Source: Candidatus Woesearchaeota archaeon (lineage in GTDB: Archaea; Nanobdellota; Nanobdellia; Pacearchaeales; GW2011-AR1). Taken from it: DNA of 37,508 nucleotides. Shown in pieces: positions 267 to 36,846 of this stretch. The stretch's first letter is position 1, and every line of letters begins with the position of its first letter. The stretch is taken from assembly GCA_964653965.1 (NCBI GenBank), contig CAZZFU010000002.1:1-37508 (forward strand), given 5' to 3'. The notes under the pieces are model-generated. The model searched no databases and was not told the DNA's origin. It saw only the letters and a list, made by a program, of their open reading frames with translations. Made by a program: the position numbers and the translations under genes.

Positions 267-535
267 AATCGCGTTTATAAATCTTTTGTAGGTTTTTTCT
301 TAATTATTGAGTGTAGATTCATCTTTAAAAGCAAAACAGATTAGGTGTTTTTTATCTAAAATGGAGGTAAACACCATGGAAGAAGAGCATGAAGAAGAAA
401 TGGACGAATCTGAAGACGAAGACGATTCTTGTTCAGAAGATGAAGAATAAACTCTTTGATTTTTTATTTTTATTCTTCTTTTTTCTTTTTATTAAATACC
501 AAAAAATAATTATATTTTTTTATCTTCACAATTTT

Positions 536-901
536 ATGAATAGAAGTGTTGAAGATATTTTTCAAGGAATTAGAGAGGAATTATTAGAGGTCTCTTTTGA
601 AAAAGACCCTTCTCGTTATTATCCAATTAGTTCTTTTTTAAATTTAAATATTGAAAAAGATCCCTCTAGTTATTATTTAATTATTGAATCTTTTTTAAAC
701 TTAAATATTGAGGGGGACATATATGAATTAATGAAATTAGCAAATAGTGAAGAGCAAGCTAGAGCTTATTTGAAAAGATTTTCTAATTTGTTCTCAGATT
801 TTCGTGGATTTTCTCTTGAAAGACAGGCAAATCATTTTTTAGAATATTCAGAATATTATATTAAATGTTATCATGCTTATCACAATAAAGAGATTAATTA
901 G
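536..901 (+). CDS. Hypothetical protein with an internal 18-19 aa tandem duplication
   Basis: The track ORF 389..901 begins in a T-rich, terminator-like tract. The first plausible start is ATG 536 (MNRSVEDIF...). It contains EKDPSRYYPISSFLNLNI / EKDPSSYYLIIESFLNLNI. I recognise no family. Confidence 0.5.
   Translation: MNRSVEDIFQGIREELLEVSFEKDPSRYYPISSFLNLNIEKDPSSYYLIIESFLNLNIEGDIYELMKLANSEEQARAYLKRFSNLFSDFRGFSLERQANHFLEYSEYYIKCYHAYHNKEIN
599..709 (+). repeat. Imperfect tandem duplication (54 + 57 nt) inside CDS 536..901
   Basis: Unit 1 is 599-652 and unit 2 is 653-709. Both start GAAAAAGAyCC and end AAAyTTAAATATT. Confidence 0.8.
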
Positions 902-3947: not shown

Positions 3948-4604
3948 TCATAATTTTTGAAGTTTTTCTTTGAGTTGTTTTGGAGATTTAATATATTCTA
4001 ATTTAATGCCAAATTCTTTTAGATATGCTTCTGTTTCAGGATATAATTTTTTATTTTTTATAAATGGTGTATAAATAAAATAAGTATAAGGAATATTTTT
4101 ATTTGCTCTTATTTGAGGATGAAGTCCTTTAACATTTGATACTCCATTTTTGAAACCTTTCATTAATTTAAATAAATAAGTTGAGTAATTCATTTCTAAT
4201 TCTGAACCAGGACTAATTCCTAAGGATAAAACAATATCTCCAAAAAATCCTCTTAATCTATTTTGTTCTCTCCAATCTCCAGAATCTATAAATTCATCAA
4301 AAATCTTTTTTCCATTTATTTTTTCATTCATATAGGGCTTTAAATGTTCAATTCCATATCTCTTGTCAGATTTTGGAATAGTTCCTATTGCTTTTTTTCC
4401 TCCTTGTTTTTTATATAATCTCGCTATTTCTATATCAACTCCTTTGTCTGGAACCAATACTATCTCTACATCTGCTTCAACTAGTGCTTTTGCAATCTTT
4501 TTTAGTTCAGATTTTAATTTCTTTTTATTAATTTTTTGAAGTTTTTGATAATAGAATTCTAGATTTCCTGGCCCAATTATAGCTACTCTTAAAGATTGTT
4601 TCAT
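3948..4604 (-). CDS. Hypothetical Rossmann-like protein (possibly LOG/SLOG, TIGR00725-like)
   Basis: N-terminal VAIIGPGN glycine-rich turn, VLVPDKGVDIEIARLYKKQGGKKAIGTIP, and GISPGSELEM, which is reminiscent of the PGGxGTxxE LOG motif. Similarity is weak and judged from memory only. Confidence 0.4.
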   Translation of the reverse strand: MKQSLRVAIIGPGNLEFYYQKLQKINKKKLKSELKKIAKALVEADVEIVLVPDKGVDIEIARLYKKQGGKKAIGTIPKSDKRYGIEHLKPYMNEKINGKKIFDEFIDSGDWREQNRLRGFFGDIVLSLGISPGSELEMNYSTYLFKLMKGFKNGVSNVKGLHPQIRANKNIPYTYFIYTPFIKNKKLYPETEAYLKEFGIKLEYIKSPKQLKEKLQKL

Positions 4605-4654: not shown

Positions 4655-5266
4655 ATGCCCCGAGACAATTTTCTGCAGAGAAAAAAAGATGTTTTATCTA
4701 GAAAGGATAAATCTCATATTGGAAAATGGGATAAAAAAATTATTAAATTATGCAATAAGATAAATTCATTAGAAAATTATTATACAACTTCTTCTTGTTC
4801 TGGAAGAATAATACTAATTCCAGATAAAGAGAAAAAAGCAAGAGACTTGTTTCTTGAGAGATATCATGATTTAATTAGTTTTAAGCAATTAAAAAAAGAT
4901 TTAGAAAAAATTGCAGTTTCTTCTAGCCACCATCCACCCCACCCCTTCCACAAAGCAAGTAAGATAAAAGAATTAATTAAATTTAAATTAGACCCTTGTG
5001 CTCTTCATGTTGCATGTAGGGATTTAGATAGTGCTAATAAATTATATTCTAAAGCAAAATTAACTGGCTGGAAAAAATCAGGGATTATTGCAATAAATAA
5101 AAGATATGTTCTTGAATTAAATAGCACAGAAAGATTAGAACTTCCAATCATAGATAAGGGGAAAATTCTTGTAGATGATAATTTCTTGAGGATTCTAGTT
5201 AAAAGAGCAAATCAAAAACTAAGAAATACTTGGAAAAAAATAAGAGCTTTTGAGAAATGTTTATAA
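4655..5266 (+). CDS. taw3: tRNA wyosine-derivative methyltransferase Taw3/TYW3-like
   Basis: Hallmark YYTTSSCSGRI motif and downstream DPCALHVACRDLDSA...GWKKSGI blocks, typical of the TYW3 family. A C-rich in-frame segment encodes SSSHHPPHPFHK (see repeat at 4927-4956). Confidence 0.75.
   Translation: MPRDNFLQRKKDVLSRKDKSHIGKWDKKIIKLCNKINSLENYYTTSSCSGRIILIPDKEKKARDLFLERYHDLISFKQLKKDLEKIAVSSSHHPPHPFHKASKIKELIKFKLDPCALHVACRDLDSANKLYSKAKLTGWKKSGIIAINKRYVLELNSTERLELPIIDKGKILVDDNFLRILVKRANQKLRNTWKKIRAFEKCL
4927..4956 (+). repeat. C-rich motif copy A (CCACCATCCACCCCACCCCTTCCACAAAGC), in frame within taw3
   Basis: A local C-rich island in an AT-rich gene. It shares CCACCAT...TCCAC..AAG.C with copies at 28310-28338 and 28644-28673, all with the C-rich strand on +. 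Confidence 0.6.
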
Positions 5267-5288
5267 GTTCTATTTCACTTTAAATAAA

Positions 5289-7169
5289 ATGGAAGAGGTG
5301 GGAAATAAATCTTCAAATTTAAAGAATTCTAAAATATCCAAACCTAATAATTATTCTAATAAAGAAGTACCTAAATCTTCTAATTCCCCTGTTGCACCTG
5401 CACCTAGAAAATCAATACCTAAAGAATATATTAGCAAACCCAAATCTCCTGTTCAACCTGTTTCTAAAAAACCTCAAGTACAATATGATAAATATTTAGA
5501 TTTAGGTTATTTTCATAGAAAAAAAGAAAAAAAACAAGGCAAACCTTTTATTTCACCTGTTTCTCAAAAGCCTGAACTTAGAAAACCTGAACCAACAAAA
5601 CCTAAAATAGAAGAAAAAAAAGAGCCTGAAGAACCTGAGACAAAAAAGGAGACAGAAGATAAACTTTCAGAGTTAAAAAGTTCTAAAGAAAATAAATCTC
5701 ATAAGCCATCTTTAATTTTTCTAGGAATTTTTATTTTAGTTTTAATATTTGGTTTAGTTTTATTTTTAGTTTGGTATCTTGGACCCCATTCAAGTAATAT
5801 TTCAGAAAGTGATTTAGTTAGAGGAACTTTTTTAGATTTAGGAGAAGGTAAAAAAGCCAAGTTTAGTATTGATGGTGAAGATCATGAAGTATTAGTTGAT
5901 TCTGTTTATACTTATTCAGTTGATTTAACTATTTCAAGTCAGCCTTTTACTATTAATTTAAGAGTAGGAGAGAGCAGAAAACTTGATTTAGATTTAGATA
6001 ATTATTATGATTTGAAAATTGGATTAAAGTCTATTGATGGAGACATTCCAAATTTATATTTGAGAGCAATAGATGAATTTATTTGCATAGAAGATTGGAC
6101 TTGTGGAAATTGGTCAATATGTGTAAATGGAACTCAAACTAGAAATTGTACAGATAGAAATAATTGTGGAACCGAAGAAAGTAGGCCTCCTGAAGGAAGA
6201 TATTGTATAGAATCAACTTCTGAACAAAATCAAACTATAAATGGAACACTTGATTGTGGAAGTGATTGGAGCTGTTTTATTAATGCTTCTAAAAACTGTA
6301 CTAGTGCTTCTTTAATGCAATACTCTTCTTTAGATATTTTTGGAGTTTTTATTAATTCAACTACTTATCTTGAAATAAGAAAACCTGAAAATGAATCTAA
6401 TAAATGTAATTTATATACAGAAACTATAGATATTTCAGTAGGATATACTGATGAATTAATTGAGATATTTATGGAAGAATTTAATCTTACTTTTTCAGAG
6501 ATACAAGAAGCAGAAGCAGAAGTAAATGAATCTGCTCAGGAGATTTCAGTAGGTTTGTGGGTTAATTGTTCTTATGATTCAGATAAAATATCAGCAATAT
6601 TAAATGCTTCAAAATATGGCATAGCAAATTGCAGCTTTAATATAAGTCTTTCTTCTCCTAATTATTATACAACAGAATGTTATTATGAACCAGAAGGACA
6701 GATTTTAGGAGTTTGTGAAACAAGTAATTTAGAAGCAGTTAATAATCCTATTGATGCTTGGGAAGAAGGAGCAGAGGGGAATAATGAAAGTTTTGTACCA
6801 AACACAATATTGGATTGTTATAATGAGAATCTTTCAGAACTCTTGTGCGAACCTGAAGTAGCTCTTGAATTTACTAATTTATTTGAAAGTAGGTTGAGCA
6901 TATGTGAAACCTCAGAAGGAACTTTTGCTCTTGGACTTGAACCTCTAGTAGGTATCTTTAGAGGTTATGAAATTCAGAGTGAACAAGATGATAAGTGTAT
7001 TGTTAAATTTTGGTTTTTGGAAAATAATGTGGTGGATTCTAGCCTATTAAATAAACAAATGATTTGTGAATATAATTCTTCTCAAAGAACAGTACAAGAT
7101 GTCAATGATTGTTTTCCAGAATGTTGCTCAGGAGAATTAGTTGATGCAATAAATAATTTAGCTGATTAA
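5289..7169 (+). CDS. Type-I-like membrane-anchored, Cys-rich, sequon-rich surface protein with a Lys/Pro-rich N-terminal region
   Basis: The track ORF starts at TTG 5250, inside taw3; the first ATG is at 5289 (MEEVGNK...). It has KP-rich low-complexity sequence, one TM segment (PSLIFLGIFILVLIFGLVLFLVWYLG), then about 440 aa with many Cys and many NxS/T sequons. A WTCGNWSICVNGTQTRNCTDRNNCG mini-domain is present. Confidence 0.65.
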   Translation: MEEVGNKSSNLKNSKISKPNNYSNKEVPKSSNSPVAPAPRKSIPKEYISKPKSPVQPVSKKPQVQYDKYLDLGYFHRKKEKKQGKPFISPVSQKPELRKPEPTKPKIEEKKEPEEPETKKETEDKLSELKSSKENKSHKPSLIFLGIFILVLIFGLVLFLVWYLGPHSSNISESDLVRGTFLDLGEGKKAKFSIDGEDHEVLVDSVYTYSVDLTISSQPFTINLRVGESRKLDLDLDNYYDLKIGLKSIDGDIPNLYLRAIDEFICIEDWTCGNWSICVNGTQTRNCTDRNNCGTEESRPPEGRYCIESTSEQNQTINGTLDCGSDWSCFINASKNCTSASLMQYSSLDIFGVFINSTTYLEIRKPENESNKCNLYTETIDISVGYTDELIEIFMEEFNLTFSEIQEAEAEVNESAQEISVGLWVNCSYDSDKISAILNASKYGIANCSFNISLSSPNYYTTECYYEPEGQILGVCETSNLEAVNNPIDAWEEGAEGNNESFVPNTILDCYNENLSELLCEPEVALEFTNLFESRLSICETSEGTFALGLEPLVGIFRGYEIQSEQDDKCIVKFWFLENNVVDSSLLNKQMICEYNSSQRTVQDVNDCFPECCSGELVDAINNLAD

Positions 7170-9719: not shown

Positions 9720-9851
9720 CGTCCCGAGGAGGACTCGAACCTCCGACACCATGGTAACTGTCTTATCCATTAAGAGTTGTTGGATTAATAAAAACCTGCT
9801 GGAGGTTTTTATGTTAACAGCCATGCGCTCTACCAACTGAGCTATCGGGAC
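9720..9851 (-). tRNA. tRNA-Asn (GTT) with a 59-nt intron at the canonical 37/38 position
   Basis: Minus strand: GTCCCGA-TA-GCTC-AGTTGGTA-GAGC-G-CATGG-CTGTTA [intron 9814..9756] A-CCATG-GTGTC-GGAGG-TTCGAGT-CCTCC-TCGGGAC-G. All stems are Watson-Crick. The anticodon GTT is at 9818-9816. No encoded CCA. Confidence 0.9.
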
Positions 9852-15593: not shown

Positions 15594-15696
15594 CTTATAA
15601 CAGTAAAATATTAGCAAAATTCATTTATAAAGGCTTCGACGGAAGATTATTTTAGACTATAACAATTCTTATAAACCCTTTTTTATGCTTTTAGTT

Positions 15697-15993
15697 ATGA
15701 TAATTGAACATAGATATAAGGGTACAAAGGAACATGCATATCAGCAGATTGACACTCTTATATCAGGTTTACAAAAACAATACGGAAATCAAATAAGTAA
15801 TCCTTCCACTTCTTGGAATTCCTCTAAGGATGAAATGTCCTTTACTTTTGGAGTTTATGGATTTACATTAAAAGGGAAAGTTCACATACAAAACGAAAAG
15901 GTTATTCTTGATGGTAAAGTTCCTCTTTTAGCTAGAGCTTTTCAAGGGAAAGCAGAAGCTCTTATTAAAGGGAAATTAGAAGAAATTCTTTAA
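15697..15993 (+). CDS. PHA_gran_rgn-like small protein (putative polyhydroxyalkanoic acid system protein family)
   Basis: MIIEHRY...AYQQIDTLISGLQKQY...SWNSSKDEMSFTF...GKVHIQNEKVILDGKVPLLARAFQGKAEALIKGKLEEIL follows the remembered TIGR02610 pattern. ATG 15697 lies about 25 nt after TTATAAA (15669-15675), so the transcript may be leaderless. An alternative start is at 15685. Confidence 0.5.
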   Translation: MIIEHRYKGTKEHAYQQIDTLISGLQKQYGNQISNPSTSWNSSKDEMSFTFGVYGFTLKGKVHIQNEKVILDGKVPLLARAFQGKAEALIKGKLEEIL

Positions 15994-15995
15994 TC

Positions 15996-17084
15996 TTATT
16001 TTTTCTTTTTAAAGTGTTTATTAACATATTCTATTAATTCACTTCCAACAAGCTGGCTGTTTGAAGGTCCGACTCTTATATAAAATTCTTCTTCTTTTGG
16101 ATTTGGTTTTAGAAAAACCTCTTTAGATGATTTTTCACAATCTACTCTCATTATAAATTTATTTCTAACTTTTAAAAATTTCAAATTTATTAGATGCAGA
16201 TTTTTCTTACCTATTTTTTCCTTTATTATATTTGTTAGATGCAATGCAAATTTATCATCATTTTCAAATTTATCTGAATCAATTCCTAGAATTTCTCCTT
16301 TATTTGAAACTCCTATAAGAAGAGTTCCCCCATTTGTATTTAAAAAAGCAACAATTGTTTTTAGAACAGAATACTCTATTTTTTTATCAAATTCTTTTGT
16401 GTGTAAATTTGTTCTTAAAGTTGATTTGAATTCTATTTTTTCATCTTCTCCTTGAGAAATTAACTCAGATAATTCTTCTTCGTGTGTTTTTCTTAAAAAA
16501 TTAGGATTTAATCTAATAAAGGCTTTTGCAAATTTTCTTATTTTTATATATCCTTTCATATATCCCAAACCAATAATTGCTGCTATTGCTGCTCCAATTA
16601 TTACAAAAAAGAGATTTTTCATTGTATAAGAATATAAATCTCCTGAAAGAGGATGTCCTGCTAAACTTTTTAAAAAATATTTTAATAATTCTAATAATGC
16701 TCCAAAACTAACTGCAAAATTAAAAGAAAACAGAGTTATAAGAAAATTATTCTTTTTTATTTGATTGCTAGAATATAAAATTGCTGAAATTAATAATCCA
16801 ATAAAGGCTATTGCAATACCAAAGAAAATTGGGGCAATTATCCCACTTATTTTTCCAATAAAAAGAGTAAATATTACAAAAATAAACAATGCCCATTCAA
16901 ATATTTTTGGAATCTTTATTTCATATTTCTTTATAATTTGAGGAAGAAACATTAAAATCAATAAAAATATATTTGTTGACATTATATGCCAAAACTGATT
17001 ATAGATAGCATTTAAAATAGAAAGAATAAGCACTAGTTTTATTGCAAGAGAAAGATAATTTTCTATAAAAGAGGGTTTTTTCAT
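15996..17084 (-). CDS. Polytopic membrane protein fused to a C-terminal Schlafen/AlbA_2 (divergent AAA_4) domain
   Basis: About 6 N-terminal hydrophobic helices, then EDEKIEFKSTL...VLKTIVAFLNTNGGTLLIGVSNKGEILGI...FYIRVGPSN, the AlbA_2 signature (E-x-EFK ... NT-GG-L-iGV ... G). Confidence 0.6.
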   Translation of the reverse strand: MKKPSFIENYLSLAIKLVLILSILNAIYNQFWHIMSTNIFLLILMFLPQIIKKYEIKIPKIFEWALFIFVIFTLFIGKISGIIAPIFFGIAIAFIGLLISAILYSSNQIKKNNFLITLFSFNFAVSFGALLELLKYFLKSLAGHPLSGDLYSYTMKNLFFVIIGAAIAAIIGLGYMKGYIKIRKFAKAFIRLNPNFLRKTHEEELSELISQGEDEKIEFKSTLRTNLHTKEFDKKIEYSVLKTIVAFLNTNGGTLLIGVSNKGEILGIDSDKFENDDKFALHLTNIIKEKIGKKNLHLINLKFLKVRNKFIMRVDCEKSSKEVFLKPNPKEEEFYIRVGPSNSQLVGSELIEYVNKHFKKKK

Positions 17085-20581: not shown

Positions 20582-21154
20582 TTATTTTCCTCTTCTTTTT
20601 CCTGCTCTTACACTTGGACGTGTTTTTGAAGTTGGAGATTTGTTTCTTAATCCTCTTGATTTTTTAGCAGCAGAAGTCAATCCTCTTTCTGCTCTTTTTT
20701 TATTTGCTCTTTTTCCAATCCAATTAATTGTTTTATCTTTTTTAATTTCTGGTTTACTTGGATCAACACAAATAACTTCATAAAAATAATTTATTCCATC
20801 TCTTCCAATTACATATGAATTTAATACTTCTAGATTTTTGTATTTTCTTCCAACTCTTTGTTCTGCAATCCATTTGTAATTCATCTTTAGATTTTTTCTA
20901 GTGTGTAATCTCTTACTTCTTCTTCCTTTATTTGGTCTTGGTCTTTTATGCCCTCCTCTTTTAATTCTTATTCTTATTATTACAAATCCTTTTTTTGCTT
21001 TATATCCTAAAGCTCGTGCTCTATCTAATCTCAAAGGTTTGTCAACTTTTGTAAATACTCCTGTTTTTCTCCATTCTATCATTCTTTCTCTAAGAGTTTT
21101 TTTATCTGGCTTTTTCCAAGCTTTTCTTATTTGGTGATACATTCCTTTTGTCAT
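20582..21154 (-). CDS. rpl15e: Large-subunit ribosomal protein L15e
   Basis: MYHQIRKAWKKP...RLDRARALGYKAKKGFVIIRIRIKRGG is typical of eL15. Confidence 0.93.
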   Translation of the reverse strand: MTKGMYHQIRKAWKKPDKKTLRERMIEWRKTGVFTKVDKPLRLDRARALGYKAKKGFVIIRIRIKRGGHKRPRPNKGRRSKRLHTRKNLKMNYKWIAEQRVGRKYKNLEVLNSYVIGRDGINYFYEVICVDPSKPEIKKDKTINWIGKRANKKRAERGLTSAAKKSRGLRNKSPTSKTRPSVRAGKRRGK

Positions 21155-21421: not shown

Positions 21422-21515
21422 TGAGGCTGCACGGATTTGAACCGTGGACCCCTACCTGTCTGATTTTCTTTATTATTATCAGAGTAGTGCTCTAACCAGG
21501 CTGAGCTACAGCCTC
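21422..21515 (-). tRNA. tRNA-Ile (GAT) with a 19-nt intron at position 37/38
   Basis: Minus strand: GAGGCTG-TA-GCTC-AGCCTGGTTA-GAGC-A-CTACT-CTGATA [intron 21476..21458 ATAATAAAGAAAATCAGAC] A-GGTAG-GGGTC-CACGG-TTCAAAT-CCGTG-CAGCCTC-A. TCTGAT/ATCAGA pairing across the splice sites fits a bulge-helix-bulge motif. Confidence 0.9.
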
Positions 21516-28730: not shown

Positions 28731-31094
28731 ATGAGTGAAAATAATATAGATTTGAAATCAATAGAGGAAAAATGGAGAAAATACTGGGAAAAAGAAGAAA
28801 TTTACAAGTTTAATCCTAATTCTAAAAAGAAAATTTATTCTATTGATACTCCTCCTCCTACTGTTTCAGGGAAGATGCACTTGGGGCATGCATTTAGTTA
28901 TTCTCAACAAGATTTTTTAGTTCGTTATAAGAGAATGAAAGGATTCAATATCTTTTATCCATTTGGAACAGATGATAATGGATTAGCAACTATTAGGTTA
29001 ATTGAAAAAGAAAAAGGAGTTAAGGCATTTGATTTGGGAAGAGAAAAATTTGTTAAACTTGTTTTGGACACTCTTGAAAAAGAACTAAGACCGCAATATA
29101 TTGAAGATTGGAAGAGATTAGGAATGAGTTGTGATTGGGATATTTTTTATACAACAATTGATGAGCATTGTCAAAAACTTTCTCAAGAGAGTTTTATATA
29201 TCTTTACAAACAAGGAAGAGAATATAGAAAAAAAACTCCTTTTTTCTGGTGTCCTGAATGTCAGACTTCAATTGCACAAGTGGAATTAAAAGATAAAACC
29301 CAGAAAAGTAAATTTGTTTATATGAAGTTTGATACTGAAATTGGAGAACCTATTGTAATAGCCACAACAAGACCAGAACTTATGGCTGCTTGTGTTGGAA
29401 TTTTTGTTCATCCTGATGATAAAAGATATAAGAGATTTGTTGGAAAAAAAGCAACAATTCCTTTTTATAACAGAAAAATTGAAATTAAAACAAATAAAGA
29501 TGTTTTGACTGACTTTGGTTCTGGAGTTGTTTATCACTGTACTTTTGGAGATATGGATGATGTAGAATGGATAGATAGAGAAGGAATTGAACCAATAGAA
29601 ATTATAAATAAAGATGGTAAATTGAATAATAAAGCTGGAAAATATAATGGAATGACTATTAAAGAAGCTAGAGGGGCAATAATACAAGACTTAGATGAAG
29701 CAGGGAAAATAGAAAAAATAGAAGAAATAGAGCATGTAGTAAATGTTCATGAAAGGTGCAATACAGAGATTGAGATTTTAATGACAGAACAGTGGTTTAT
29801 TAGATATCTTGATTTAAAAAAAGAAATGTTAAACTGGGGTAATAAGCTTAATTGGTATCCTAAATATATGAAAGTTAGATATGATAATTGGGTTAAGGGT
29901 TTAAAATGGGATTGGAGTATTTCAAGGCAGAGATACTTTGGAGTTCCTATTCCTGTTTGGTATTGCAAAAAATGTAAAAAAGTAATTCTTGCAGATGAAA
30001 AACAACTTCCTGTTGACCCTTTAAAAGATAAACCTTTGAAAAAATGTAAATGTGGAAGCGAAGAATTTATTCCTGAAAAAGATGTTTTAGATACTTGGGC
30101 AACTTCTTCATTAACCCCTCAAATTGCAACAGAACTAATGCCTAAGAAAATACAAGGAAAAATATTTCCAATGTCTTTAAGACCCCAATCTCATGATATT
30201 ATTACTTTTTGGCTCTTTAATACTGTTGTAAAAAGTCAATTGCATGAAGAAGTAAATCCTTGGAAAGATGTTGTTATTTCTGGATTTGTTTTAGATCCTC
30301 ATGGCAAAAAAATGTCTAAAAGCAAAGGAAATGTTATTGAACCTCAACAAGTTATAGAAAAATATAGTGCAGATGCTTTAAGATATTGGGCAGCTTCAAG
30401 TAAACTTGGAGATGATTTGCCTTATCAGGAAAAAGATGTTTTAACTGGTAAAAAAACAATTACAAAAATCCTTAATGCTTCAAGATTTGTTTTTAATAAT
30501 TTAAAGGATTATAAACCAAAAAAAGCACATTTAGCAGAAACAGATAAATTATTTTTAGCAGAATTAAATAAACTAATAAAAAATTGCACAGAAACTTTTG
30601 AAAGATATGAATATTCTAAAGCTAAATTTGAAGCAGACAATTTTTTCTGGAAGATTTTCTGTGACAATTATTTAGAAATTGTTAAAAAAAGAGTTTATAA
30701 TGGAACTAAAAAAGAAAAAGAATCTGCATTTTATACTCTTTATTATTCTTTGTTAGTAATTTTAAAGCTTTTAGCACCTATCATGCCATTTATTACAGAG
30801 GAAATGTATCAAAAATATTATAAAAAATATGAGAAAGAAAAGAGTATTCATTTATGTGAGTGGCCAAAAGAATCAAAAATTCATACTAAAGCAGGAATTC
30901 TTGATTTAATGATAAAAATAATTTCAAAAATTAGAAAAGAAAAAACAAAAGCTAAAAAACCAATGAATAGTGAAATTAAATTAACACTGGATAAAAGAGA
31001 TAAATCTAAATTAAAGCATGTTTTAGATGATTTGAAAAATGTAACAAATGCAACTGAAATTAAAGAAGGTAAATTTAAAGTGGAGTTTGTTTGA
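28731..31094 (+). CDS. valS: Valyl-tRNA synthetase (archaeal type)
   Basis: IDTPPPTVSGKMHLGHAFSYSQQDFLVRYKRMKGFNIFYPFGTDDNGLAT (HIGH region typical of archaeal-type ValRS), an editing-domain insert, and KMSKSKGN. At 787 aa it is too short for IleRS or LeuRS. Confidence 0.82.
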   Translation: MSENNIDLKSIEEKWRKYWEKEEIYKFNPNSKKKIYSIDTPPPTVSGKMHLGHAFSYSQQDFLVRYKRMKGFNIFYPFGTDDNGLATIRLIEKEKGVKAFDLGREKFVKLVLDTLEKELRPQYIEDWKRLGMSCDWDIFYTTIDEHCQKLSQESFIYLYKQGREYRKKTPFFWCPECQTSIAQVELKDKTQKSKFVYMKFDTEIGEPIVIATTRPELMAACVGIFVHPDDKRYKRFVGKKATIPFYNRKIEIKTNKDVLTDFGSGVVYHCTFGDMDDVEWIDREGIEPIEIINKDGKLNNKAGKYNGMTIKEARGAIIQDLDEAGKIEKIEEIEHVVNVHERCNTEIEILMTEQWFIRYLDLKKEMLNWGNKLNWYPKYMKVRYDNWVKGLKWDWSISRQRYFGVPIPVWYCKKCKKVILADEKQLPVDPLKDKPLKKCKCGSEEFIPEKDVLDTWATSSLTPQIATELMPKKIQGKIFPMSLRPQSHDIITFWLFNTVVKSQLHEEVNPWKDVVISGFVLDPHGKKMSKSKGNVIEPQQVIEKYSADALRYWAASSKLGDDLPYQEKDVLTGKKTITKILNASRFVFNNLKDYKPKKAHLAETDKLFLAELNKLIKNCTETFERYEYSKAKFEADNFFWKIFCDNYLEIVKKRVYNGTKKEKESAFYTLYYSLLVILKLLAPIMPFITEEMYQKYYKKYEKEKSIHLCEWPKESKIHTKAGILDLMIKIISKIRKEKTKAKKPMNSEIKLTLDKRDKSKLKHVLDDLKNVTNATEIKEGKFKVEFV

Positions 31095-31132
31095 ATATAA
31101 ATTTATTTAAATTATATTTTATTGATTTAGAT

Positions 31133-31510
31133 ATGAGTTTAAGAGATTTATTGGACGCAGAAGTTATTGGATTTGTGCTTTTAGGGATTGGATCGCTTCA
31201 TTACATTGGTTCTCTTAGTTATGAGGTTTTTCAGACTAAACTTTCTTTTTTGAAAGAAAGCTTTAAAGATACACAAAATTGGGAAAAGTATATAGATAAA
31301 CTTTTATCAGAAGAAAAATTGCCAGAAAATAATCCTAAATTGTTGGATGCTAAACAATATGTAATTAAAAAATATAAATCTCTTTTAGATAAAAAAGTAT
31401 CAAAATCCCTTCTTTTTACTCGTCCACTTTTTTATTTTCAGGTAAAAAAAGAATTTGATTATATTAAAGAAGAAAGTGAAAAAAGATTAAACGAATTACA
31501 AGCAGCTTAA
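31133..31510 (+). CDS. Hypothetical protein with one N-terminal hydrophobic segment
   Basis: First ATG inside the track ORF, whose own start at 31091 is TTG. No recognised motif. Confidence 0.4.
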   Translation: MSLRDLLDAEVIGFVLLGIGSLHYIGSLSYEVFQTKLSFLKESFKDTQNWEKYIDKLLSEEKLPENNPKLLDAKQYVIKKYKSLLDKKVSKSLLFTRPLFYFQVKKEFDYIKEESEKRLNELQAA

Positions 31511-31548: not shown

Positions 31549-32637
31549 ATGGCAATAACAAAAGATGAACTTGAAGAAGTTCTTGAAGAACTTGAGCAAC
31601 ATAAAGGAAGACATACAGAATTAATTACTGTATATATATCTGCAGGTTATGACGTAAATGCAGTTCAAAGGCAGCTTGAGGCAGAAAAATCAACTGCTAA
31701 AAACATTAAATCAACTTCCACAAGAAAAAATGTAAGTGATGCTCTTGATAAAATCGTGAGGCATCTAAAGACTTTGAAGAAGACTCCTGAGAATGGATTA
31801 GCTTTGTTTTGTGGAAACATTTCAAAAGTTGAAGGACAACAGGATTTGCAATTATGGGATATTGAACCTCCATTCCCAATTAAGATGAGGCTATATAGAT
31901 GTGATAAAGAATTTGTTCTCGAACCTTTAAGAGAGATGCTCGAAGTTTCTGAAGTTTTTGGTTTATTAGTTATGGATAGAAAAGAAGCAACAATTGGTTT
32001 GTTAGAAGGAAAAAGAATAGATGTTCTTCAAAAAATGACTTCTGGAGTTCCTAGCAAAGTTAGAGCAGGAGGACAATCGAGTCAAAGATTTCATAGAATA
32101 ACAGAAGGTTTGACAAAAGATTTTTATAAAAGAATTGCAAATGAAATGAAGAAAATATTTTTTGAAATGCCAAAACTAAAAGGAATTTTAATTGGAGGCC
32201 CTATTCCTACTAAAGATGAATTTATTGATAATGAATATTTAGCTACTCAATTAAGAGAGAAAATAATTGGAAAAGTTGATATTGGAGATACTGATGAATC
32301 TGGTTTAAAAGAACTTGTTGAGAAATCTCAGGATATTTTATCTAATCAAGAAATAATTCACGAGAAAAAATTAATGGAAAGATTTTTTGAAACTTTAGGA
32401 GAAAAACCAGAAATGGCAACTTTAAAAGAGCCTGATACAAGGCAAGCTTTAGAATATGGAGCTGTTGAAACTTTGTTTGTTTCTGGAGCACTAGATTTTA
32501 GACCAAAAGTTAAAGAATTAAGGCCTTTGGCAGAGAATATTGGAGCTAATGTAGAAATAATATCAATAGAGACTGAAGAAGGACAGCAATTTTATAATCT
32601 TGGCGGAATTGGAGCTATTTTGAGATATAAACTTTAG
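31549..32637 (+). CDS. prf1: Peptide chain release factor aRF1
   Basis: NIKS (TAKNIKSTS), YxCxxxF (YRCDKEF), GGQ (RAGGQSSQRF), and C-terminal GGIGAILRY. Confidence 0.93.
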   Translation: MAITKDELEEVLEELEQHKGRHTELITVYISAGYDVNAVQRQLEAEKSTAKNIKSTSTRKNVSDALDKIVRHLKTLKKTPENGLALFCGNISKVEGQQDLQLWDIEPPFPIKMRLYRCDKEFVLEPLREMLEVSEVFGLLVMDRKEATIGLLEGKRIDVLQKMTSGVPSKVRAGGQSSQRFHRITEGLTKDFYKRIANEMKKIFFEMPKLKGILIGGPIPTKDEFIDNEYLATQLREKIIGKVDIGDTDESGLKELVEKSQDILSNQEIIHEKKLMERFFETLGEKPEMATLKEPDTRQALEYGAVETLFVSGALDFRPKVKELRPLAENIGANVEIISIETEEGQQFYNLGGIGAILRYKL

Positions 32638-33206
32638 AATTTAAATCTCCCTCCAAAAGTAATTTCAGTACCACTTAAATCATAATCTTCTCCATCATAT
32701 TTTCCAGAAATCTCATCATAATTTAATTCTAGATACATCACTTCATTTTCACTTGTTTTAATTTCTATTCCTCCTCTTAGCCCAAAACCAATACCAGTCA
32801 TCCCCTCTTTGTGATTATATTCCATATCTTCAAAATTAAAATTCATAATTTTTACACCTGCTCCAAGATAGAAAAAACCTTTTTCTTTTCCAACACATAG
32901 ATCATAATATCCTCCAAATTGAGTCATATTAGTTTTTAATTTTTCTTTTTTGTTTTTTTTTCTGTAGTGTGCTGCCTCTAATTCTATTCTGCTTAGGTTA
33001 CCTGGCTGAAAACCCATGGAAAATTTTCCTCCAGGAATTGTTTTAAAATAATGTTGTATATTTGAATTACTTAAGATTTTTCCAGAAAGGCCTAGTTTAG
33101 CATAGTAATTTTGGTTTTGAGTTTGGTTTTGTCCAAGAGATTTTAAAGGTATCAGGCTTGAAAGAGCAATTCCTGCTGTTATAAGACCTTTTTCTAGTTT
33201 ATTCAT
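32634..33206 (-). CDS. Secreted protein resembling an 8-stranded outer-membrane beta-barrel (OmpX/OmpW/OMP_b-brl-like)
   Basis: A signal-peptide-like N-terminus (MNKLEKGLITAGIALSSLIPLKSLG). About eight amphipathic strands with alternating hydrophobic residues (YYAKLGLSGKIL, KFSMGFQPG, RIELEAAHY, FGGYYDLCVG, FFYLGAGVKIMNF, GIGFGLRGGIEIK, VMYLELNYD, GTEITFGGRFKF). The last residue is Phe, as in bacterial OMP beta-signals. Confidence 0.5.
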   Translation of the reverse strand: MNKLEKGLITAGIALSSLIPLKSLGQNQTQNQNYYAKLGLSGKILSNSNIQHYFKTIPGGKFSMGFQPGNLSRIELEAAHYRKKNKKEKLKTNMTQFGGYYDLCVGKEKGFFYLGAGVKIMNFNFEDMEYNHKEGMTGIGFGLRGGIEIKTSENEVMYLELNYDEISGKYDGEDYDLSGTEITFGGRFKF

Positions 33207-33263
33207 AATTCTTAGGTGTTAAACTATTTTAAAAGTATTATTGTAATTCAAAATACATTCTAT

Positions 33264-33728
33264 TTAATAAGGACAGTGATAAATTTTATGAATTATTTTA
33301 TTTGGAATTGTTTTTAATATCATGTTATTTTGTTTTATCAATTCTCTATTATTCTTTGAAATCTTTAATTGTGGTGGTTTAAATATTTCTGGTTCATAAC
33401 CAAAACAAGCTTTAAATTCATTTATTCCTTCTTGTAAATAAGTTTGATTTCTATCTGTTAGAAATTCTCTATAAGTATGATAAACTCCATGCAATCCTAA
33501 TGTTTTATTTAAACTTAAAATATATTCACACCATTCAGGATTTTCAGAAAGAGAAGTATTATTAAATTTAGGAATTACAAATAAAATATCTGCTTCTTCT
33601 AAAAGTTCTTCTGCACAAAAAAAAGCAGGAGTGACATCATCTATTTCTCTTGGGCTTATTAATCTAAAGCAAAATAAAAACACACCCAGTATAATAAATA
33701 TAATTAAAATTATCAGCCCTTTTTTCAT
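33264..33728 (-). CDS. Membrane-anchored DUF2334-like protein (polysaccharide deacetylase fold, short form)
   Basis: N-terminal TM segment, then DDVTPAF...LGLHGVYHTYREF...GINEFKACFGYEPEIFKPPQLKIS matches the remembered DUF2334 blocks (HDV.P ... lHGy.H...EF ... g..p.gFvaP.w.ls). Start taken at MKKGLII; the track ORF starts 6 codons earlier. Confidence 0.5.
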   Translation of the reverse strand: MKKGLIILIIFIILGVFLFCFRLISPREIDDVTPAFFCAEELLEEADILFVIPKFNNTSLSENPEWCEYILSLNKTLGLHGVYHTYREFLTDRNQTYLQEGINEFKACFGYEPEIFKPPQLKISKNNRELIKQNNMILKTIPNKIIHKIYHCPY

Positions 33729-33776
33729 AAAATACTCATCCAACACTTATTTAAATTATTTTATCTTATATATTAT

Positions 33777-34367
33777 ATGAAAATAAAAAGAGGAATTTGG
33801 CTAAATATTATTGGGATTTTTCTTGTTGTTTTAGGAATTATTCATCTTTATCAGACAATTTTTACAGTTGAGCCAATTCATGGTTTTTGGTTATGTAATC
33901 ATGTTATATTTTTTATAGGAATTGCTATTTTATTTAGAAAATCATTTTGGTTAAGAGCAGAATTTCTTGTTTTATTTTTAGGGCAATTTATCTGGATAAT
34001 TAATTTTATCTTTAAGATTTTTGGCTCTGGTTTTGTAGTAGTTGATTATGCTATTGGTTTTGTTCCTGCAGTTGTTCATTTATTGACTCTTCCTTTAGGA
34101 TTTATTGCTATTATTCTTCTTAAGAAAAAAGAAAAATCTGCTTGGAAAGGAAGTTTATTGCACATGTTAGTTTTATTGCCTATTGTTCTTTATTTTGGAA
34201 GCTATTATAATTTGAATTGTCTGCTTAAACCATGTGTTACTTGGTTACCAAATATTTTAATATACCCTTTTGGAATATTTTTAGTTTATTTTGGTTTTAT
34301 AATTCTTTTAAATTATTTTATAGATGAGATTGTTTTAAAGAATTCTAAATTCAAGAACAAGAGATAA
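33777..34367 (+). CDS. Polytopic membrane protein, unknown function
   Basis: About 6 hydrophobic helices. No recognised motif. Confidence 0.5.
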   Translation: MKIKRGIWLNIIGIFLVVLGIIHLYQTIFTVEPIHGFWLCNHVIFFIGIAILFRKSFWLRAEFLVLFLGQFIWIINFIFKIFGSGFVVVDYAIGFVPAVVHLLTLPLGFIAIILLKKKEKSAWKGSLLHMLVLLPIVLYFGSYYNLNCLLKPCVTWLPNILIYPFGIFLVYFGFIILLNYFIDEIVLKNSKFKNKR

Positions 34368-34398: not shown

Positions 34399-34917
34399 AT
34401 GAGAAGTGATACATTGAATGAGGTAGATGAAGGAAAGCAAAAAGAAGATATGAAAATTTTAGAAGCAATATTCTTTGTTTCTGGAAGATTTTTAACAATT
34501 CCAGAATTAGTTTCATTATCTGATTTAAATCCGGCTATTATTCCAGGACTTATTGAAAAAATCCAAGAAAAATACAATGAGGATTCTGCAATTGAAATTA
34601 TTGAGAAAAATGGATTATGGAAAATGGATGTAAAACCAAATTATGTTTATTTAATTAATAAATTAGCAACTGGAAATGCAGAATTCTCAAAAGCAGAACA
34701 AGAAACTTTAGCAATTATAGCATTTAAACAACCAATAAAACAATCAGTTATAATTAAGATAAGGGGAAATAAAGCCTACGACCATATAAAGAAATTTAAT
34801 GATTTAGATTTAATTAAAAAGAAGAAAACAGGGCACACCTATGAGTTGAATCTGAGTGATGATTTTTATGATTATTTTAATATTAGTTCAGAGTCCAACA
34901 ATCTTTTAAAAGAATAG
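34399..34917 (+). CDS. scpB: Segregation and condensation protein B (ScpB)
   Basis: ILEAIFFVSGRFLTIPELVSL and a second wHTH, SKAEQETLAIIAFKQPIKQSVIIKIRG, typical of the tandem winged helices of ScpB. Confidence 0.78.
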   Translation: MRSDTLNEVDEGKQKEDMKILEAIFFVSGRFLTIPELVSLSDLNPAIIPGLIEKIQEKYNEDSAIEIIEKNGLWKMDVKPNYVYLINKLATGNAEFSKAEQETLAIIAFKQPIKQSVIIKIRGNKAYDHIKKFNDLDLIKKKKTGHTYELNLSDDFYDYFNISSESNNLLKE

Positions 34918-34939
34918 AATTCTAATTTCTTTGCATAAA

Positions 34940-36172
34940 ATGGATTTTATAACAATTGTATTTTTAGTATATACTTTTATAGCTCTTTACTTCTTTTTTC
35001 TATTTGTTTTGATATATCTTCAAAATAAAAATAAGTTTTTTTATTATCCTAAGACAAAAAAAATTTATTCTTTGAGTATTGTAATTCCTTGTTATAATGA
35101 AGAAGAGCATATAGGAGGAACAATAGAGTCTCTGTTGAATATAGGATATAAAGGATTAAAAAAAATAATAGTTGTTGATGATTGCAGTACTGATAATTCT
35201 TATAAAATTATGAAAGAATACGCAAAAAAATATTCTAAAGTTATGGCTGTTCAAACACCAAAAAATACTGGAAATGCAGCAGGAGCAAAGAATTATGGCT
35301 CTAAATTTGTTAAAACAGAATTAATTGGATTCACAGATGCAGATTCTTATCCTGAGAAAAAATCTGCAAATAAGATGGTTGGATTTTTCAATGATCCTCA
35401 AGTTGGAGCAGTAACTTCCACTGTTTTAGTAAAAAAAAGAGATAATTTTATAGAAAAACTTCAATCAATAGAATATAAAGTAATTAAGTTTAGTAGAAAA
35501 TTATTAGAATTTATTGATTCTATTTATGTTACTCCTGGACCTTTGGCAGTTTACAGGAGAAAGGCTTTTGAAGAAATAGGAAGATTTGATGCAAAAAATT
35601 TAGCAGAAGACATTGAAATTACTTGGAATTTACAGGCAAATAATTGGAAGATTAGAATGTGTGTTCCTTCAAGAGTTTATTCTGTTACTCCTAATAAAAT
35701 AAAAGATTGGGTTAAACAGAGAAATAGATGGAATATAGGAGGATTGCAGACAATTTTCAAATACAGGAAATCTGTTTTAAACAGACAAGGAATGTTAGGC
35801 TTTTTTATTGTTCCTTTTTTTGTTTTATCTTGGCTTTTGGGATTATTTGGAATTTTTATTTTAGGATATAGAATTATAAGAGAGGTTGTTGTAGATTTTC
35901 TTTCTACAAAATATTCTATTGAGGCTCAAACAGCAATACTTGCTTTAAGAGATATAAATCTCACTCCTAATGTTTTAATCTTTTTAGGATTAATACTATT
36001 TTTATTCGGACTTCTTTTTACTCTTGTAGCTCTGTCAAATGTAAAAGAAAAGCAATATCCACGACAAGGAGTTTTTACATTAGGATTTTATTTAATATTT
36101 TATTTATTAGCATATCCCATAATTCTTATAATTTCACTAGCTAAATTCTTAAAAAGAAGAACCTCGTGGTAA
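34940..36172 (+). CDS. Processive family-2 glycosyltransferase (PgaC/IcaA/NodC/cellulose-synthase-like)
   Basis: SIVIPCYNEE, VVDDCSTD, TDADS (DxD), AEDIEIT (ED), QRNRW (Q-x-x-R-W). One N-terminal TM segment and several C-terminal ones. ATG at 34940; the track start at 34931 is TTG. Confidence 0.85.
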   Translation: MDFITIVFLVYTFIALYFFFLFVLIYLQNKNKFFYYPKTKKIYSLSIVIPCYNEEEHIGGTIESLLNIGYKGLKKIIVVDDCSTDNSYKIMKEYAKKYSKVMAVQTPKNTGNAAGAKNYGSKFVKTELIGFTDADSYPEKKSANKMVGFFNDPQVGAVTSTVLVKKRDNFIEKLQSIEYKVIKFSRKLLEFIDSIYVTPGPLAVYRRKAFEEIGRFDAKNLAEDIEITWNLQANNWKIRMCVPSRVYSVTPNKIKDWVKQRNRWNIGGLQTIFKYRKSVLNRQGMLGFFIVPFFVLSWLLGLFGIFILGYRIIREVVVDFLSTKYSIEAQTAILALRDINLTPNVLIFLGLILFLFGLLFTLVALSNVKEKQYPRQGVFTLGFYLIFYLLAYPIILIISLAKFLKRRTSW

Positions 36173-36186
36173 ATAAAAGGAACAAA

Positions 36187-36846
36187 ATGAAATTTTTATC
36201 TAATAATAAAAGAGTTTTTTGGGAAGCTCTATTATTAACTTTAATAGTATTTATTCTTGGAATGCTTCTTGGTGCTAGTTTTGAAAGAGGAAATTTAAAT
36301 GAAGTTGAACAATATTATGCTAAATCAGAAGTTCTTTTTATGGACATGTTTGCTTTAAATGACAGAATAAACTCTGGAGATTCTTGTGAGATTTTAATTG
36401 ATTCAAACATACAATTAGCAAATAATATTTATGAAGAAGCATATGAATTAGAAAAGTACGAGACTGCTGGAAAAATTACAGAAGGATTGAAATTAGCACA
36501 TAGAAAATATGATATGTTAAGAACTTTTTTATGGATTAATTCAATTGATATTTCAGAAAAATGCCAAAAAGAATTTAATACTGTTGTTTATCTCTATGAA
36601 TATCAGACAAAAGATTTAGCAGTTAAAGCAACTCAGACTGTTTGGTCTAAAGTTCTTTTTGATTTAAAACAAGAAAAAGGAAATTCTATTGTCTTGATTC
36701 CTATTGCTGTGGATAGTAATCTTGTTTCTTTAGATTCTTTATTAGAGGATTTTGAAATTTCAAGATATCCTGTTGTAATTATTAATGAAGAATATGTGGT
36801 TACAGAGTTAGAATCTGTGGATGATTTGTTAAAATACTTATATTAA
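36187..36846 (+). CDS. Hypothetical single-pass membrane protein immediately downstream of the GT2 synthase
   Basis: ATG 36187 lies 15 nt after the GT2 stop. It has a TM segment (VFWEALLLTLIVFILGMLLGA) and then a domain of about 190 aa. No recognised family. Confidence 0.45.
   Translation: MKFLSNNKRVFWEALLLTLIVFILGMLLGASFERGNLNEVEQYYAKSEVLFMDMFALNDRINSGDSCEILIDSNIQLANNIYEEAYELEKYETAGKITEGLKLAHRKYDMLRTFLWINSIDISEKCQKEFNTVVYLYEYQTKDLAVKATQTVWSKVLFDLKQEKGNSIVLIPIAVDSNLVSLDSLLEDFEISRYPVVIINEEYVVTELESVDDLLKYLY

Follow-up and report, generated by a model that had tools for sequence, protein, structure and literature searches.

Outer membrane protein (OMP)-type β-barrels are generally taken to be characteristic of diderm bacteria and of the organelles descended from them, and to depend on Omp85/BamA for assembly. 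What is such a barrel doing in the core gene neighbourhood of an archaeon, and which membrane would it occupy? The question is raised by a gene in contig CAZZFU010000002.1 (assembly GCA_964653965.1, Candidatus Woesearchaeota archaeon), of which positions 1-37,508, the whole 37.5-kb stretch of DNA that we analysed, are here called the window. An earlier note on this DNA had described a bacterial-style eight-stranded OMP-like barrel encoded in an archaeal core region, and profile homology, a structural model compared by Foldseek, the pattern of the strand faces and synteny all bear this description out. The gene and its immediate neighbour are:

32634..33206, reverse strand: OMP_b-brl-like eight-stranded β-barrel coding sequence (ATG start, 190 aa, TAA stop; from the open reading frame (ORF) list)
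31549..32637, forward strand: archaeal peptide chain release factor 1 (aRF1), convergent with the OMP gene (from the ORF list and the sequence)

Our analyses indicate that the product is very probably a membrane barrel of the OMP family and a native protein of this archaeon. It is a new, divergent member of the well-known OMP_b-brl family, from which it stands out by the domain of its host, by its stable synteny in archaea and by the question of the membrane occupied. When the protein was compared with profiles of bacterial OMP families, as the earlier note had proposed, it matched Pfam OMP_b-brl (PF13505, MBB clan) over profile positions 16-175 of 175 with an E-value of 5.6e-5. PF13505 was matched individually by 22 of the 26 aligned family members (best E 1.1e-13); the full-length match is clear for the family and borderline for the window sequence alone. 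Three of the 26 also matched the Opacity family (PF02462; best E 1.6e-5), and the family profile gave weak matches in the PDB to Opa60 (E 0.012) and NspA (E 0.13), while a single-sequence PDB search with the window protein returned noise only. OmpA_membrane (PF01389) and the OmpA C-terminal domain (PF00691) were matched neither by the window protein nor by its family; the chain ends at residue 190 with the last barrel strand, leaving no place for an OmpA_C peptidoglycan-binding domain. The family is small. An exhaustive phmmer search over 1.84 billion cluster representatives yielded only 20 relatives, profile searches brought a few more and a metagenome scan added 6 further loci. Scanning the GTDB genomes for patterns taken from OMP peptides gave no members, and those present surfaced only through the aRF1 anchor.

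An AlphaFold2 model of the protein, built from 11 sequences, had a predicted local distance difference test (pLDDT) score of 85.4 and a predicted TM-score of 0.75. It places the barrel as follows:

32637..33110, reverse strand: β-barrel domain, aa 33-190 (DSSP assignment of the model and family hydropathy)

The eight long strands of the model (33-45, 56-67, 72-85, 90-107, 110-127, 132-150, 155-170 and 179-189) agree with the eight or so amphipathic strands that had been read from the sequence. They are joined by short proximal turns (68-71, 108-109 and 151-154) and by longer distal loops at 46-55, which carries a short helix, 86-89 (a KKEK hairpin), 128-131 and 171-178. The top Foldseek matches in the PDB were eight-stranded OMPs, namely the OmpA transmembrane domain, Ail, NspA, OmpW, OmpX and OprF-N, at a probability of 1.0; for the OmpA transmembrane domain (1bxw) the E-value was 2.7e-8 with TM-scores of 0.73/0.80. 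Soluble barrels were absent from the top 50 Foldseek matches. The predicted structure is thus that of a closed OMP-type barrel.

The alternation of hydrophobic residues, on which the earlier note had relied, holds across the family in all eight strands; in the window protein alone it exceeds chance only to a modest degree. There the dyad amphipathicity gave a z of 2.5, a value reached by 22 of 2000 shuffles and ranking fourth among 41 window genes. The strong barrel signal stems from the family profile and the model, not from the single-sequence pattern. We split the residues of 26 sequences into two faces using the model strands and the dyad phase. The hydrophobic face has a mean Kyte-Doolittle value of +1.93, is 3% charged and 77% aliphatic or aromatic, and varies in residue identity; the polar face has a mean of -1.42, is 31% charged, 26% glycine and 9% aliphatic, and is the most conserved residue class in the protein. 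Glycines are therefore present as the earlier note had said, mainly at strand positions that face the lumen, and not in the glycine- and aromatic-rich girdles that it had described. Each strand carries 4-5 alternating hydrophobic positions over about 9 residues, which would correspond to a hydrophobic belt of roughly 22-25 Å. Past this belt, toward the loops, the hydrophobic phase flips (T92, M94, F123, F125 and I166), as expected of a barrel top that protrudes from the membrane. Read from the alignment, the face pattern looks like the signature of an OmpA/OmpX-type barrel, with a lipid-exposed outside and a packed, salt-bridged lumen. The C-terminus, ...ITFGGRFKF, keeps the resemblance to a β-signal noted earlier: 19 of the 26 members end in Phe and 3 in Leu. 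The mature chain alone forms the complete eight-stranded barrel, with no soluble domain, unlike the plan of a β-pore-forming toxin. By analogy with eight-stranded barrels of the OmpA/OmpX/Opa type, which are anchors or adhesins, the terms porin-like and pore-former used in the earlier note are not favoured.

Is the gene truly archaeal? Profile searches identified MCM, TBP, eIF-1A, eIF-2β, ribosomal protein L15e, NAC and aRF1 among the window proteins, and the window further encodes an ATP-dependent DNA ligase, TYW3, FtsZ and two class I aminoacyl-tRNA synthetases. The domains eRF1_1/2/3 were matched in the aRF1 orthologues, and the window aRF1 is 64-86% identical to the aRF1 of 80 GTDB Pacearchaeota, Woesearchaeota and Nanoarchaeota species, with its best match in JAFCDI010000001, a Candidatus Pacearchaeota metagenome-assembled genome. 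Because of these identities and the archaeal gene content, we assign the window to a DPANN archaeon of the Pacearchaeota/Woesearchaeota group. The OMP gene has a GC content of 30.0% compared to 27.4 ± 2.9% for 41 window genes (z 0.9), and its z values for GC at third codon positions (0.8) and codon-choice likelihood (-1.0) likewise lie within about 1, in agreement with the AT-rich, neighbour-like composition reported before. The 4-nt overlap with the aRF1 stop is also present: the two stop codons share the bases TTAG. The overlap is tail-to-tail on convergent genes and therefore does not imply co-transcription. More telling than the overlap, the adjacency to aRF1 recurs in more than 10 independent assemblies (JGI, ENA, Logan and NCBI), which makes chimerism unlikely and upholds the earlier statement that the gene is no binning artefact. 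The same gene order in ~11 diverged lineages, together with the native composition, excludes a chimeric assembly or binning error.

In every archaeal context recovered, the OMP gene lies between ScpB and the 3´ end of aRF1. There are 11 such contexts (the window, P0002, P0003, P0004, P0016, P0017, P0023, P0026, P0027, P0029/L062 and L084), and in the window the remaining genes of the neighbourhood are:

33264..33746, reverse strand: membrane-anchored DUF2334 protein, polysaccharide-deacetylase-like, upstream of the OMP gene and in the same direction
33777-34367, forward strand: polytopic membrane protein (Pfam)
34399-34917, forward strand: ScpB (Pfam)
34931-36172, forward strand: BcsA-like membrane glycosyltransferase family 2 (GT2) synthase, 413 aa, residues 6-287 of which align to cellulose synthase BcsA
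36166-36846, forward strand: 226-aa protein, a context gene

The same-slot barrels of the ~11 lineages are only 24-42% identical. The OMP gene directly follows the DUF2334 gene in 10 of the 11 archaeal lineages, L112 having the OMP gene and no DUF2334 gene, and the 4-nt stop overlap with aRF1 was found again in several of them. The ORF is intact and of constant length, and its start, signal peptide and C-terminal strand are kept in ~25 clusters from many samples. The simplest history for these sequences would be one acquisition in the clade ancestor followed by vertical descent with many losses. At the aRF1 junction itself, one locus (L043:5070-5304) carries a tandem repeat of ~112 bp in the aRF1 3´ end, whereby the last 41 aa are encoded twice, and in another (L112:1939-1998) the last 20 aa of aRF1 are encoded once more, between the OMP gene and aRF1. 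These duplications look like insertion or recombination scars lying exactly at the OMP gene junction.

The N-terminal end of the gene is organized as follows:

33132..33206, reverse strand: predicted Sec-type signal peptide, aa 1-25 (MNKLEKGLITAGIALSSLIPLKSLG), from its n/h/c regions and the -3/-1 rule
33111..33131, reverse strand: polar linker rich in Q/N, aa 26-32, of variable length and sequence
33225..33234, reverse strand: TATA-box-like element TTTTAAAATA, 19-28 nt upstream of the OMP gene ATG

The signal-peptide-like N-terminus seen by the earlier note has, on reading the sequence, a basic n-region, an h-region of 15 residues interrupted by Pro20, and the small residues Ser and Gly at -3/-1. 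Sec export with cleavage between G25 and Q26, giving a mature start of QNQ, is the inferred route. In the model, residues 3-17 form a low-confidence helix and the pLDDT falls below 50 for residues 20-29. Gln26, the first residue after the predicted cleavage, is at least 90% conserved in the family; a crude heuristic scan for Gln at +1 as a general feature of these archaea found it in 0 of 79 candidates, many of which are not true signal peptides. The linker that follows shows the highest column entropy of the family alignment, with insertions and deletions. A type IV pilin-like (class III) signal was considered and rejected, as the family does not conserve the K-G pair that precedes the hydrophobic stretch of the window protein, and lipoprotein or archaeosortase sorting was rejected as there is neither a lipobox Cys nor a C-terminal extension. 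Boxes such as CTTTTAAAA or similar A/T stretches lie at an equal distance upstream in orthologous loci, which is weak evidence at 28% GC. The element suggests that the OMP gene may be transcribed from an archaeal promoter of its own, into an mRNA with no leader or a very short one.

The mature barrel and its surroundings evolve at different rates. Protein identities between the window and a related locus, L001, are:

Neighbours: aRF1 87%, GT2 83%, DUF2334 81%, ScpB 80%, 226-aa protein 77%
OMP gene: signal peptide 69%, mature barrel 39%

The signal region is 69-77% identical to that of orthologues (L001, L019 and L108), and the mature part 30-39%. A signal peptide better conserved than its cargo, as the predicted boundaries would have it, is unusual. 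At the DNA level the flanks are 75-80% identical and the OMP mature part 51-57% in all lineages compared; in the two closest, L001 and L019, the OMP signal region stands at 74% and the promoter region at 67-72%, and in L104 these values are 52% and 58%, respectively. Together with this, the sharp drop at the mature region would fit a protein exposed at the surface and subject to diversifying pressure by hosts or viruses.

Where did the gene come from? The OMP_b-brl family is otherwise overwhelmingly bacterial, and similar barrels are found in the BFVD on phages of Bacteroidota and other bacteria. The only relative found outside the archaeal slot is P0010 (E 1.3e-11). It adjoins a 1544-aa protein whose extreme C-terminus is a type IX secretion system (T9SS) type A sorting domain, scoring 30.4 bits with a cutoff of 23, and because of this neighbour we place P0010 in a Bacteroidota/FCB-type bacterium. 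In addition, the near-invariant Gln after the predicted cleavage recalls the Bacteroidetes Q-rule (PMC5837995). The largely bacterial family, this Gln and the abundance of such barrels on phages point to a bacterial, possibly Bacteroidota-like source; the setting of P0010 suggests an old transfer from bacteria, the donor probably being of Bacteroidota/FCB type. Upstream of P0010 there is a long, perfect-looking inverted repeat (L103:5075-5143, TGTAACTATTT-CCCC...GGGG-TAAATAGTTACA), which could be a terminator or a repeat element.

The genes beside the barrel bear on its possible role. The probable start of DUF2334 is the ATG at 33728, giving 154 aa, as in the JGI gene calls. Pfam matched the product to DUF2334 (E 5.7e-10) and weakly to Polysacc_deac_1 (E 0.005). 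In eighteen orthologues, 154-183 aa long including an N-terminal membrane anchor, a DD pair, an HxxxH motif, one more His and 4 Cys are invariant. These residues recall the metal-binding and catalytic motifs of carbohydrate esterase family 4 (CE4) polysaccharide deacetylases, and the protein may be a minimal extracytoplasmic CE4-like deacetylase. Its single-sequence AlphaFold2 model was poor (pLDDT 53) and was not used. The backbone from aRF1 to ScpB-GT2 is kept in most of the 80 related genomes, and in other lineages the slot holds PMT-like glycosyltransferases and GtrA. By its gene content, the aRF1-ScpB slot is a variable envelope-glycan locus, which would fit a cell-surface role for the barrel. 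A Pga-like polysaccharide export porin was considered and rejected: such a role would take more than eight strands, and most loci with GT2 and DUF2334 lack the barrel. No porin, Omp85/POTRA, chaperone or lipid-transport genes were found among the genes of the window.

Several observations concern the rest of the window. The ORF at 20582-21154, also of 190 aa, is not a paralogue of the barrel; it encodes ribosomal protein L15e. Two presumed intron-containing tRNAs lie on the reverse strand at 9720-9851 (132 nt) and 21422-21515 (94 nt), of which ARAGORN detects only the latter, with an odd 4-base anticodon, gata. The ValRS-like class I aminoacyl-tRNA synthetase gene (28731-31094, forward strand) has 59% identity to its L001 orthologue, the flanking genes 77-87%, and this divergence may reflect gene replacement or accelerated evolution. 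Overlapping the end of that gene is a 139-aa ORF with a TTG start and no family match (31091-31510, forward strand), which is kept in some relatives (50-56% in L034 and L058) and annotated as a gene in related contigs. The ORFs at 5250-7169 (forward strand, 639 aa), 389-901 (forward strand, 170 aa) and 3948-4604 (reverse strand, 218 aa) matched nothing in Pfam at E <= 0.001. TBP is adjoined by a PHA_gran_rgn-like protein (15685-15993, forward strand) and a Schlafen/AlbA_2 domain protein (15996-17084, reverse strand), unexpected company in a reduced DPANN genome.

From these data we propose the following course for the barrel. The ancestor of a Pacearchaeota/Woesearchaeota subclade would have gained the gene from bacteria, and it became fixed, on this proposal, in the aRF1-ScpB slot. 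Transcription would start from its own TATA-like promoter; the pre-protein would pass through SecYE-β and, judging from the sequence, be cleaved before Gln26. The mature, monomeric chain is predicted, by the model and the family statistics, to form a barrel with a hydrophobic belt of ~9 residues per strand and a charged, Gly-packed lumen. Spontaneous folding into bilayers is known in vitro for small barrels, among them OmpA-TM, OmpX and PagP, and insertion here would be BAM (β-barrel assembly machinery)-independent, into a bilayer of the archaeon's own envelope. The inserted barrel would act as a membrane anchor or adhesin and not as an open pore, a choice that draws on family likeness, and would turn its distal loops and protruding top outward to the interface with host cells or viruses. 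The much faster evolution of the mature part, compared with the neighbours and with its own signal peptide, would be a consequence of this exposure. The anchor or adhesin role in the own envelope is put forward tentatively, at somewhat less than even confidence; for the composite, in which a bacterially acquired, Sec-exported, eight-stranded barrel is inherited vertically and serves as this anchor or adhesin, we regard the balance of probability as even.

Several points weigh against this proposal. The window protein scores 23.8 bits, under the PF13505 gathering cutoff of 28.7; the model was built from 11 sequences; the closure of the barrel and the geometry of its belt are derived from Foldseek TM-scores and sequence phase; and the protein is known here from gene sequences and predictions. 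The OMP gene is kept in only 2 of the 80 GTDB species loci around aRF1 and is therefore dispensable. About 30 of these loci have DUF2334 without the OMP gene, including the closest relative, L021 (aRF1 86%), in which the 240-bp gap between aRF1 and DUF2334 holds no recognisable OMP remnant. In the neighbour-joining tree, which is long-branched, P0010 falls inside the family, and this leaves the direction of transfer and the donor unsettled. The fast divergence could also be explained by relaxed constraint in place of exposure to hosts or viruses. No archaeon is known to have a bacterial-type outer membrane or BAM/Omp85, and β-barrel insertion into an archaeal ether-lipid membrane has no known precedent.

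How else might the locus be read? That the clade assembles a bacterial-type barrel without a BAM of its own, either in an unrecognised archaeal outer bilayer or in the outer membrane of a Gram-negative host, strikes us as unlikely. In the second of these settings the barrel would be secreted at a contact site and inserted into the partner's outer membrane, through the host BAM or spontaneously, to serve there as an attachment anchor or a mimic of host OMPs. Although overall identity is 24%, 19 of 26 members keep the C-terminal strand with its terminal Phe, which would fit this, as would the bacterial type of the family with its closest outside relative in a T9SS-bearing bacterium, and the fast evolution of the mature part suits a host-interface protein. 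Other surface proteins of bacterial type, giant murein transglycosylase proteins among them, are carried by Woesearchaeota and Pacearchaeota, for which bacterial hosts have been suggested (PMC8204110, PMC11537232). However, there is no evident delivery route across a host outer membrane into the periplasm, the side from which BAM substrates normally come, and no secretion or injection device is encoded among the window genes; membrane-interface packing alone can account for the terminal Phe. We consider this quite unlikely. A Pacearchaeota subclade with a true outer membrane, in which the barrel is a resident OMP, would account for all the sequence features, since those of a resident OMP are all present. 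Double membranes have been reported in ARMAN, Altiarchaeum, Ignicoccus and Methanomassiliicoccus (PMC4243693), the first two being DPANN-affiliated (PMC4243693, PMC8871954), and a possible distant PopA-type barrel has been described in Altiarchaeales (PMC12228718). That archaea of this type are monoderm, as the earlier note had it, is itself an assumption. Against a resident OMP stand the single small barrel family, absent in 78 of 80 related species including the closest, and the lack of porin, Omp85 and lipid-transport genes in the window; a basic outer membrane would not hinge on a dispensable gene. The known outer-membrane protein of Ignicoccus is α-helical. Our literature search found no paper on an OMP in Pacearchaeota. 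A diderm subclade is, in our view, decidedly unlikely.

An OmpW/OprG/AlkL-like conduit for hydrophobic compounds, or for scavenging host lipids by a lipid-auxotrophic symbiont, would suit the lipid synthesis that is commonly missing in DPANN archaea. The reduced metabolism of these archaea has been reviewed (PMC6349945). OmpW and OprG were among the Foldseek matches (E 4.7e-7 to 1e-5), and eight-stranded Bacteroidota OMPs of the BT1926 type have been modelled as lipid-trapping oligomers around loop 1 (PMC12228718), the best-conserved loop in the archaeal family. But the charged, Gly-rich and aliphatic-poor lumen resembles the filled OmpA/OmpX interior, unlike the hydrophobic channel of OmpW, and OmpA, Ail and NspA outscored OmpW in Foldseek, making the conduit very unlikely. 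The remaining readings take the product for a soluble secreted barrel of lipocalin or avidin type, or for a decaying, functionless gene left by horizontal transfer. Strand alternation suits any up-down barrel, with a z of only 2.5 in the single sequence, and the gene is lost in most relatives and diverges fast. Yet no soluble family, lipocalins and avidins included, was found among the Pfam, NCBIfam, PDB sequence or Foldseek results. The soluble alternative raised in the earlier note is rejected because the conserved face is polar and Gly-rich and the variable face uniformly hydrophobic, the reverse of a soluble barrel, and the intact ORF, with its start, signal peptide and C-terminal strand retained, speaks against decay; both are extremely unlikely.

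Whichever membrane it occupies, the archaeal OMP family provides a handle on the Pacearchaeota/Woesearchaeota cell envelope. It bears on BAM-independent folding of small barrels into archaeal ether-lipid membranes and, with other surface proteins (PMC8204110), on bacterial rather than archaeal hosts for some DPANN. If it were true that the barrel enters a Gram-negative host, it would give, for the first time, molecular evidence of an interface in a DPANN-bacterium symbiosis; if it were only a tolerated horizontal acquisition, it would still be a clean transfer of an envelope protein from bacteria to DPANN. The aRF1-ScpB slot is marked as a hotspot of surface-related gene turnover.

Among known systems, the closest likeness is to the PF13505 barrels (OmpA transmembrane domain 1BXW, OmpX 1QJ9, Ail 3QRA, NspA 1P4T and Opa60 2MAF), which share with the archaeal protein its predicted signal peptide, eight antiparallel amphipathic strands, short turns at the side of the N- and C-termini with longer loops opposite, an outside hydrophobic belt around a charged, Gly-rich lumen, and the terminal Phe, with Foldseek TM-scores of 0.66-0.80. 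Unlike these, the archaeal protein belongs to a host without a known outer membrane or BAM, shows 12-17% identity to solved OMPs, and has an unusually conserved predicted signal peptide with a fixed Gln after the predicted cleavage; unlike full-length OmpA, it has no C-terminal peptidoglycan-binding domain. Ihomp1 (Imp1227), the pore protein of the outermost membrane of Ignicoccus hospitalis and the only archaeal outer-membrane protein known to have been characterised, would be a possible functional analogue if the barrel-bearing cells were diderm. It is a small α-helical oligomer, unrelated in sequence and fold to the β-barrel. Systems of the PgaA/PgaB/PgaC type resemble the locus in combining a GT2 synthase, a deacetylase (here the deacetylase-like DUF2334) and a β-barrel. 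By contrast, PgaA has 16 strands, an eight-stranded barrel being far too small for polymer export, and most of the archaeal relatives have GT2 and DUF2334 but no barrel, while one lineage has the barrel but no DUF2334. Phage OMP barrels (in the BFVD, Lom-like proteins and others named outer membrane protein β-barrel) have the same fold and size (best BFVD match E 5.9e-11, TM-scores 0.78/0.80) and show the mobility of such genes, whereas the archaeal gene sits in a chromosomal core neighbourhood and not in a viral context; a PHROG comparison and a scan of IMG/VR contigs gave no match for it. Finally, the Bacteroidota OMPs of the BT1926/CHU_0007 type (PMC12228718), a lead that comes from their description only, are likewise small, closed, eight-stranded barrels, from the likely donor phylum. 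Loop 1 is functionally important in those proteins and is the best-conserved loop in the archaeal family, and their part in adhesion and phage susceptibility (PMC12228718) would fit a fast-evolving surface protein.

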